From Ignavibacteriota bacterium (GTDB lineage: Bacteria; Bacteroidota; Ignavibacteria; UBA10030): 64,000 bases of DNA. The notes under the pieces are model-generated. The model was given only the letters and a program-made list of their open reading frames with translations, was not told the DNA's origin and made no database searches. A program made the translations under genes and the position numbers. How positions within the stretch are numbered: position 1 is the first letter of the stretch; each line of letters starts with the position of its first letter. Shown here in pieces: positions 25,583-27,153 of this stretch. The stretch lies in the NCBI GenBank assembly GCA_963701295.1, contig OY969585.1, positions 832,001 to 896,000 of the forward strand, read 5' to 3'.

Positions 25583-25644
25583 GAAATGCCCAATTGCAGG
25601 CGTTTATGAGAGAACGCTCAGCTTATTGGGCATTTTTTACAAAG

Positions 25645-25853
25645 GGGCACATGGCGAAACTGGCAGATGCGTCCCGCAAAACGATTTCGGGTAGATGGCG
25701 AAACTGGCAGACGCGCTAGCCTTAGGAGCTAGTGGAGTAATCCATGGGGGTTCAACTCCCCCTCTACCCACAGAGGTTTGCGGGATGGGGAAACCCATGT
25801 GGGTTCCCAGCCGGAGGCTGATGCGCTTATAGCGCAGAGTCCGTCCGTGCCCA
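25645..25853 (+). pseudogene. Degenerate outer tRNA-Leu-type gene, interrupted in the anticodon arm (by an intact tRNA) and in the T-loop
   Basis: Acceptor GGGCAC/GTGCCC-A, D arm TGGCGAAACTGGCAGATGCG, variable arm TGGG-GAAA-CCCA, T arm GTGGG-TTC[30 nt]GAGT-CCGTC. No anticodon of its own. Confidence 0.8.
25689..25770 (+). tRNA. tRNA-Leu(TAG)
   Basis: Full cloverleaf: GGGTAGA/TCTACCC, D arm, CTAGC-CTTAGGA-GCTAG, variable arm TGGA-GTAA-TCCA, GGGGG-TTCAACT-CCCCC, discriminator A. CCA is not encoded. Lies upstream of tig. Confidence 0.96.
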
Positions 25854-25881: not shown

Positions 25882-27153
25882 TTGAGCGTGGAAGTAATTA
25901 TTCAATCTTTGTCAGATGTCTCACGCGAAGTGGAAATCACCGCCACAACTGAAGACCTTATGCCTCATTTTGATAAAGCATATTTAGAGTATAGAAAAAA
26001 AATCGAAATTCGTGGATTCCGGAAAGGGAAAGCGCCCTTAGACATCGTCAAAAAACTTTATGGCGATTTAATTGAAAACGATTCTCTGAACGAAGTCGCT
26101 ACCGAGATGTACCGCAAAGCCGTAAAAGAAAAAGAATTGAAACCCATCGGCGAACCTGTACTCGTTGACATGGATTATAAACGCGGCGAAAGTTTTCGAT
26201 GTAAGATTCAATATGATATTCGTCCGACCATAGAGGTGAAACAATACAAGGGTATTGCAGTAGAGAAAAGTGTGCATACCATAACCGATGACGAGGTTGA
26301 AAAAGAAATCATTCGTCTGCAACGGATCAATGCTATGATGGAAGAAGTGGAGGTTGTCACCGATCCAGAGCATATTGTCACCGCGACTCTCCAGGACCTA
26401 GATGACAATGGTACTCCGGTAATCGGGAAGAAAAGTGATGATATTCGTTTTTATCTCGCCGATGATCAGCTTGAACAGCCATTTAAGGATACATTACGAG
26501 AAGCGCGAAAGGGCGGTAATTATCGCGTGCAATTTGAACATAAGCACGGTGAGCATGCACATACCGTCAACACACAAATCATCGTCACGAAGATTCAAAA
26601 AGTCACACTCTCGCCGCTGGACGATGCGTTTGTCGCTAAGGTCACAAAAGATAAGTTCGTAACTGTCGATTCATTACGGGCTGGAATTCGGGAAGATATC
26701 ATTTCTTATTGGAAGGAAAAAACCGAACGTCAGGTGATCAATTCGATAACATCTGAAATTATCCGACTTCATGAATTTCAGGTGCCGGAATCGCTTATAC
26801 GCAGTGTGCTTGAAGGACTGTTGGAAGAAGTGAAGAATGAATATCCCAATAAACGATTACCGGATGAATTTGACATCGAGAAATTTAACGAAGAGAACCG
26901 CGCATATGCCATCTATCAGGCAAAGTGGGCATTATTACGCGAAGAGTTGATCAAAGCAGAGAATATCACCGTTTCCGATGAAGACCTTGAAAAGTTGGCA
27001 GAAACAGAATCTGACAAAATTAAAATTCCGAAAGATCGTCTTATCAGCTATTACAAATCTTCCGAACAGATCAAAGATCGCCTTATCGGCGATACGCTAT
27101 TGAAAATTCTTGTGGACTCGGCAAAAATAAGGGAAGTCCCTGAAAAAGCGTAA
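25882..27153 (+). CDS. tig: Trigger factor
   Basis: GFRKGKAP ribosome-binding motif; tig-clpP-clpX synteny. Confidence 0.93.

Follow-up and report, generated by a model that had tools for sequence, protein, structure and literature searches.

How does one complete tRNA gene come to lie inside another, and what has become of the outer gene? The question is raised by a locus on the forward strand of contig OY969585.1 of an Ignavibacteriota bacterium (genome G000), at positions 25645-25853 of the 64,000-nucleotide stretch analyzed here (the window; positions refer to it unless a contig of a genome is named).

The nested tRNA-Leu locus

The locus is flanked by a gene for a TPR protein on one side and by tig-clpP on the other. 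The trigger factor gene tig (25882-27153, plus strand, from the list of open reading frames; Pfam Trigger_N and Trigger_C) is followed by clpP (CLP_protease) and by a gene which we take to be clpX. All elements of the nest are on the plus strand, in the order and at the coordinates given in a preliminary description made from the letters of the window. The 5' half of an old resident tRNA-Leu(TAG), tRNA positions 1-26, occupies 25645-25671 and matches the working allele of a relative, G001, at 25 of 27 nt (changes G7A and C24T). At tRNA position 27 the left arm of a cassette begins (25672-25681, TCCCGCAAA, with the TCCCG end), followed by a left linker (25682-25688; the same letters in G005, one change in G012) and an intact incoming tRNA-Leu(TAG) of 82 nt without encoded CCA (25689-25770; ARAGORN, and Rfam RF00005 at 56.5 bits). 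A right linker and the right arm with the CGGGA end (25771-25785; arm 25777-25785, TTTGCGGGA) stop at tRNA position 43. The 3' half of the old tRNA, with its variable arm (25786-25797), T arm and acceptor strand, fills 25786-25853 and equals the G001 allele except for one substitution and an insert in the T loop.

The cassette (25672-25785) is therefore 114 nt of TCCCG arm, whole tRNA of another allele and CGGGA arm, and within these 114 nt there is no open reading frame. Folding of a 221-nt region reproduces the 9-bp stem that had been drawn around the inner tRNA (-97.4 kcal/mol; z = -4.66 against 200 shuffles). This stem is 11-12 bp long in relatives; the right arm is one T shorter here than in relatives and in two sequencing runs. 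The inner gene is the sole tRNA-Leu(TAG) of the 3.64-Mb single-contig genome among 47 ARAGORN calls, one of which is doubtful (a 1.9-kb 'intron'), and of the 763,006 codons in the long open reading frames of the genome 3,522 are CTA. When introns were allowed and the threshold was lowered, ARAGORN returned 3194 calls, which are noise. On the plus strand, no site passed the threshold of a promoter scan. A hairpin and a T run (25589-25638), lying between the tRNA and a promoter-like stretch, form a possible attenuator or leader of tRNA-Leu-tig-clpPX; a like structure with other letters is present in other genera (L016, L018, L019).

The preliminary description placed the inner gene in the anticodon arm of the outer one. 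The location is correct, but the arm has not been interrupted: comparison of plain and nested alleles shows that a cassette of 114-115 nt stands for exactly 17 nt, positions 27-43, which are gone. Nothing is duplicated and no direct repeat is found at the cassette junctions. As for the hallmarks of a MITE of a DDE transposase, terminal inverted repeats (9 bp) are present and a target-site duplication is absent, with a target deletion instead. An intron (group I or bulge-helix-bulge) was rejected, as removing 25672-25785 leaves no anticodon arm and none of the Rfam intron families matches at E up to 1. A check for repeat partners (a motif scan and one repeat family) returned a nine-copy TCCCG-hairpin repeat without link to the nest, presumably an IS110-like element in an integron attC-like array. 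At C1:223800-246000 and in other clusters of G000, repeats of about 155 nt alternate with single genes; nine near-identical elements are inserted at the repeats, and their non-coding ends hold TCCCG hairpins.

The layout given for the outer shell also stands, except that a 30-nt two-hairpin insert in its T loop, between C56 and G57 (25807-25836), had been overlooked. This insert has no target duplication. Its unit has five clear copies in the genome, this one included, of which four are in tRNA-like 3' remnants; it is missing from G001, G009 and G010, and G004 has a related insert. The two mismatches reported in the outer T stem are present: the U.U at 50:64 also occurs in the working G001 allele and the other one is new, as is an A.C at 7:66.

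The nest is real and no product of assembly or chance. Chimerism, against which the reads were to be checked, is ruled out since the layout recurs in eight other genomes of the genus and contigs assembled from short reads of other strains (best share of words with G000 0.15) cross both junctions, one spanning the left (X2 record 27) and two the right through to the start of tig (X5 records 29 and 30). Contigs of related alleles from RNA libraries, possibly DNA, cross the junctions as well (X16 record 21; X17 record 1), and speak to the layout rather than to RNA ends or expression.

A hairpin family in tRNA genes

A second nest in G000 occupies tRNA-Thr(CGT) (C1:2036512-2036745; L035, L090), with 13-bp TCCCG arms and a Thr shell that has a T-loop insert. 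Its inner and outer acceptor stems differ, its right junction, contrary to that of the Leu nest, lies inside the anticodon loop, and the locus is nested in G010 and plain in G001; in G006, G007 and G032 it holds tandem hairpin copies. Directly behind an intact tRNA-Gln(TTG), a tRNA-Gln copy (C1:2549660-2549775, minus strand) has a short TCCCG hairpin without cargo in place of positions 27-43, plus a T-loop insert. Short TCCCG...CGGGA hairpins number 85 in the genome, against 4-45 for 11 control pentamers.

An exact pattern of the Leu D arm followed by TCCCG, which by design fixes the junction, was searched in 185,579 species genomes and yielded 54 loci, assigned by title to Bacteroidota, Ignavibacteria, Nitrospirota, Elusimicrobia, Omnitrophota, Myxococcales, Calditrichaceae and others. 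Fifteen are full nests, that is, tRNA halves flanking an intact tRNA, which the preliminary description had suggested looking for; 29 are short closed hairpins, and the rest are open-ended, cut by a contig end or due to chance. A wider set of 69 adds 11 metagenome loci, found with a pattern biased to this arm type, and four loci from the class, where a class-wide pattern that misses G000 matched 7 of 301 genomes (L197 and L198 by chance). Nests make up 27 of the 69, 26 with TAG and one with CAA. Among the 23 nests classed by script there are 18 different cassettes, whose arms span 6-14 bp; L057, L161, L164 and L165 were recognized as nests by eye. Three loci (L050, L082, L163) are nested two deep with alternating alleles, and L057 is two deep too; the older layers are more decayed.

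For short hairpins at 23 Leu loci, the first 10 nt downstream of the hairpin agree with the variable arm of the neighbouring tRNA-Leu at 7.0 of 10 positions, versus 3.7 of 10 (0 of 10,000 permutations), so each host has formed its junction anew. L061 and L064 retain an anticodon stem after the hairpin, which together with the right junction of the Thr nest means that the outcome is not uniform. From the inner tRNA to the end of the right arm there are 11-16 nt in most nests, while the left distance ranges from 15 to 106 nt. All 15 nests among the 54 loci are TAG, compared with 2 of 15 short hairpins that have a tRNA-Leu within 135 nt, as if a spare were required wherever the tRNA is essential; this rule was not relied on, because intact genes also have short-hairpin copies next to them and Thr(CGT), redundant by wobble, is nested as well.

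Some loci stand apart. At L049:1491-1573, a tRNA-Leu has a TCCCG/CGGGA anticodon stem with a 7-nt loop reading TAG; it may be a gene that acquired an anticodon again after hairpin substitution, or else the stem may have its natural origin in such a gene. Behind an intact gene, L041:1349-1861 (three 143-nt units) and L065 carry tandem hairpin-substituted tRNA-Leu copies.

Could the cassette be what is left of a once larger element, with an integrase or transposase gene, that disrupted the tRNA and supplied a whole spare, the arms being its ends? The logic would be that of tRNA-dependent lysogeny as set out in the accessible text of PMC10865867. The tRNA gene is indeed a hot spot for islands: in G004 a 48-kb island with a tyrosine integrase (C55:69045-117147; L031-L033) sits in the anticodon loop of the inner tRNA, G014 and G019 have similar upstream sequence, and the IS110 copies of G000 contain TCCCG hairpins. 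However, the island in G004 leaves the anticodon loop in place and gives a second copy of the tRNA 5' half, whereas the cassette deletes the arm, which bears out the earlier remark that integrase attachment sites do not give a nested layout. Among the 69 loci there is no long version of the cassette, and a scan of viral contigs gave no matches, by which a phage origin was also rejected. Past 5-6 nt the arms vary without restriction, and the loop of many elements measures just 5-20 nt. We consider a remnant unlikely. As observations on the islands themselves, the one in G004 restores the 5' half of the tRNA instead of the usual 3' half, and the attachment-side sequence of G014 and G019 is related to it, with a 5' half matching the allele of each.

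Plain, nested and decaying alleles

The genus was represented by 16 genomes, G000 included. Nine are nested (G000, G004, G005, G009, G010 and G012, and in decayed form G003, G008 and G013) and seven are plain (G001, G002, G006, G007, G011, G014 and G015), with one tRNA-Leu(TAG) that consists of the outer halves and a normal anticodon arm. The plain G001 allele scores 54.5 bits as a tRNA (RF00005); 13 of 82 positions distinguish it from the inner tRNA. Five relatives share all 82 nt of the inner tRNA, and three share 79-81. In G024, from another genus, the arrangement is reversed, with inner-type outer halves, an outer-type inner tRNA and an unchanged left arm.

In an rpoB tree of 19 genomes (the 16 of the genus and three of the family), the nested state requires at least four changes, a count that by itself does not separate gain from loss. 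A single clade of nested genomes is rejected (p-AU 8e-5), and nested G012 is sister to plain G014 with 100/100 support. Between G000 and G005 the inner tRNA is identical (82/82) and linkers and arms agree at 32 of 34 positions, while rpoB four-fold sites are 45% identical; for G012 the values are 82/82, 31/34 and 44%. The unpaired linker, at about 9 of 11 nt in G005 (p about 0.015) and 8 of 11 in G012 (p about 0.06), adds small evidence for transfer. The 3' part of the shell behaves otherwise: that of G010 matches G001 at 41 of 42 positions against 33-34 for the other clade, and that of G005 matches its own clade at 37-38 of 42 against 31 for G001. Since the 3' part thus resembles the plain allele of its own clade, at least one join on the right side must lie in the 3 nt next to the arm. 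A cassette that is near-identical across divergent clades, in shells that match local alleles, points to repeated insertion, and we infer with good support that it arrived horizontally more than once, in different clades. Upstream of tig, the plain outer-type allele is the resident form, and by this comparison of alleles the outer halves are the local ancestral gene. Of the two origins offered in the preliminary description, the palindrome-bounded mini-cassette bringing a replacement tRNA agrees with these data: the outer halves form one working tRNA in plain relatives, the inner tRNA is of a different allele, and nests are patchy on the tree.

The nest might instead be old and inherited, the plain alleles having arisen by several precise losses. 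The tree is blind to the direction of change, and G001 is plain at both Leu and Thr in a mostly nested clade, where recombination could have restored both. Yet restoring a plain allele takes two exact deletions, and a dead shell would have needed clade-specific, compensated changes in variable arm and acceptor. The basal member of the genus and two of the three family outgroups are plain, and the cassette linkers are much more alike than silent sites. An inherited nest is accordingly very unlikely.

Counted against their nearest plain alleles, six shells carry 21 changes over 390 positions (each substitution and each gap event taken as one; some shared by descent and one or two influenced by the alignment at the insert); over 410 positions of the inner tRNA there are none. 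The changes strike U8, G19, C61, C62 and stem pairs, and none seen in the six shells is a compensatory pair change. In G003, G008 and G013 the shell is mostly erased around an inner copy that retains 79-81 of 82 positions. The outer copy was nevertheless a tRNA, as described: besides the score of its natural plain counterpart, ARAGORN takes the G000 shell once both inserts are removed, and only with the anticodon arm restored (a test in which the left join is one base out of register); it accepts the shells of four of eight relatives. The old gene is very probably a dead, decaying shell around a working tRNA, left behind when a cassette replaced its anticodon arm. The inner tRNA must be cut from the shell transcript, since it is the only tRNA-Leu(TAG) of the genome; this is a necessity and not a function of the shell.

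The second origin offered earlier, a shell that is a natural scaffold with a job, here taken as an RNA scaffold or leader selected for release of the inner tRNA or for expression of tig-clpP-clpX, fares poorly. It would account for the stable fold and for the acceptor and arm pairing largely retained in six genomes, and the junction-crossing contigs from RNA libraries, if not DNA, would suit it. Against it stand the pair-breaking changes and T-loop inserts, uncompensated in all six shells, the near-erased shells of three genomes and the greater decay of older layers in double nests, so that we regard it as most improbable.

An origin by assembly error, or by two independent partial duplications of the 5' half upstream and the 3' half downstream, is already largely refuted. 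Duplicates of only the 5' or only the 3' half, with hairpins, do occur in G000 and elsewhere. But, as had been argued against a simple tandem duplication, the outer halves pair with each other rather than with the inner tRNA; they are also equal to the plain allele, the acceptor 5' strands of outer and inner tRNA agree in 0 of 23 nests, the arms pair over 6-14 bp, and the layout recurs in many independent assemblies and short-read contigs.

A candidate mobilizer and related systems

A hairpin-flanked, single-domain GIY-YIG gene is absent from the Leu locus and present at three other tRNA loci and one REP cluster of G000, which has four such small genes (PF01541 matches; C1:2356210, 3414978, 3297553 and 2938956). 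Three lie with TCCCG hairpins in split duplicates of tRNA-Ala, tRNA-Cys and tRNA-Leu(CAA) (L120, L121, L123; C1:2356095-2356600, 3414881-3415260 and 3297422-3297860), and two of these run into tRNA letters at their 3' ends. The Ala-linked gene ends in a tRNA remnant in which a TCCCG hairpin stands for positions 27-43, with both junctions as in the Leu nest. The fourth gene (C1:2938400-2939700; L122) is part of a dense cluster of GTCATTGCG repeats, a setting like that of Ssn/SRM; in some repeats of this cluster the inner hairpin is exchanged for a TCCCG hairpin. Tandem arrays of GIY-YIG genes occur in G002 (about 14 genes at 299-nt spacing) and G019 (seven genes).

Taking the best match in 30 of the 38 genomes with a match (41 searched), 28 of 30 GIY-YIG loci have a tRNA within 450 nt and 18 of 30 a TCCCG-type hairpin, which 2% of random windows contain; the query was a tRNA-lodged protein and the loci are kin. 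At nested Leu(TAG) loci tblastn found no GIY-YIG gene (seven loci have such genes, none nested), and neither the 11 metagenome loci nor the other loci searched contained an autonomous cassette with a nuclease gene between its arms. None of the four G000 nucleases reaches the cut-off of an NCBIfam family; they match PF01541 and the UPF0213 structures 1ywl and 1zg2, and we take the tRNA-lodged ones to resemble the SLX1-like subfamily more. ComEC and DprA are encoded in the genome; both are common and no proof of competence.

The accessible text on the Ssn system (Chenal et al. 2025, PMC11893778) describes SsnA of Neisseria as a 94-residue GIY-YIG protein that binds a single-stranded hairpin and cuts beside its stem (TCCCGC/GCGGGA core). 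It acts on transforming DNA and lowers transformation, and works also on a two-strand stem; the activities reported there are cutting and lowered transformation, not joining or mobilizing DNA. The nuclease-gene junctions, the activity of SsnA and the presence of ComEC and DprA together suggest a GIY-YIG and single-strand route. If the cassette replaced the arm, a small GIY-YIG nuclease acting on single-stranded DNA and encoded elsewhere is the likely mobilizer, somewhat better than an even chance in our judgement. For the account as a whole, a cassette standing in place of the 17-nt anticodon arm between decaying host halves and likely pasted as a single-stranded hairpin by such a nuclease, our confidence is a little higher, about two chances in three.

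The events might run as follows. The cassette would be a non-autonomous member of the hairpin family, its stem the nuclease site and its loop free for cargo. Single-stranded DNA entering by transformation would anneal by its conserved tRNA 5' half to the cognate gene; it would be cut at the foot of the stem and, on the other side, joined within 3 nt of the stem. A cargo tRNA that keeps the cell alive would make the swap tolerated and repeatable, giving nested layers, and the usual maturation steps (RNase P cleavage, trimming of the 3' end and addition of CCA) could free the inner tRNA. This scheme leaves the first entry of a whole tRNA into the loop, and the fixed right against variable left spacing, to be explained.

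The resemblance to Ssn extends to the hairpins. The cassette shares with the NTS/SRM repeats a stem core of the TCCCGC...GCGGGA type; hairpins of this kind are spread through the genome and are linked to single-domain GIY-YIG genes of about 90 residues (PMC11893778, accessible text), and CGTC-type REPs have hairpin repeats with the same core (PMC3733652, in the part available). Unlike SRM, it lacks the oriented CGTCAT leader that SsnA needs and a C after the stem, and its flanks are D-arm and variable-arm letters. The Ssn paper proposes its gene-plus-repeat unit as a mobile element; its main text, in which 'tRNA' occurs 0 times, describes no loop cargo, no replacement of a host hairpin and no demonstrated mobility. 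The kinship of the tRNA-lodged proteins to Ssn (CDD cd10448) is putative, the comparison having been made at the level of PF01541 and UPF0213 structures.

Closest in logic is the tRNA-dependent lysogeny of mycobacteriophages, which uses a phage tyrosine integrase and a common core of about 10 bp (Guerrero-Bustamante and Hatfull 2024, PMC10865867, accessible text). There, too, the host tRNA is destroyed and not rebuilt, and a whole tRNA of the same type is supplied and then needed. The cassette differs in its 114 nt, in having inverted arms and neither integrase gene nor common core, in the exact loss of the anticodon arm, in placing the spare inside the broken gene and in events that can stack. 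The one printed look-alike found is in Lak megaphages, where an 'intron' of tRNA-Thr TGT possibly encodes a tRNA of its own (Devoto et al. 2019, PMC6784885, as its accessible text has it): tRNA-like sequence lies inside a tRNA gene and related genomes have plain alleles. Unlike that phage intron, the present cassette leaves no anticodon arm upon removal, its inner copy is a working cognate gene, and it resides in a bacterial chromosome. SegB of phage T4, a free-standing GIY-YIG homing endonuclease, cuts a conserved tRNA motif and spreads neighbouring tRNA genes; in the portion of PMC2330249 at hand this is by a double-strand cut in the T arm and kilobase gene conversion between phages, with no hairpin ends and no nesting. 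Islands in tRNA genes (Islander; PMC4383910, available portion) likewise use conserved landing sites and restore function from the element, but they carry a half copy that makes the split gene whole again and they create a direct repeat; the cassette does neither.

A literature search covering the main texts of mostly open-access papers found the arrangement nowhere described. We regard it as a variant of 'break the host tRNA, bring a spare'; the arrangement is real, and its mechanism we infer. What this case adds is a single genus whose plain and nested alleles are placed on a tree, a count of decay, and matching junctions on nuclease units of the same genome.

tRNA genes are taken to be very stably inherited, and here an essential one has been replaced several times within a genus by a 114-nt piece without genes. 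The swap is likely the work of a family of very small selfish elements, made up of hairpin and nuclease, by which bacterial tRNA genes are exchanged time and again. If small GIY-YIG nucleases are responsible, a large group of uncharacterized proteins would gain a function and a target, and the mobility that the Ssn paper proposed would be at hand; this would also account for the many tRNA fragments full of hairpins in these genomes and point to a minimal enzyme for single-stranded hairpins. More tentatively, and with rather less than an even chance of being right, gene-less hairpins moved in trans by GIY-YIG nucleases of about 90 residues, precisely replacing tRNA anticodon arms and carrying any loop cargo including the cognate tRNA, may form an undescribed class of mobile DNA. 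Such a class would be a main route of turnover and transfer of tRNA alleles across phyla, with nested layers that can be dated, and would offer a compact reaction for single-strand hairpin replacement that is possibly programmable. tRNA alleles can, in any case, misreport ancestry.
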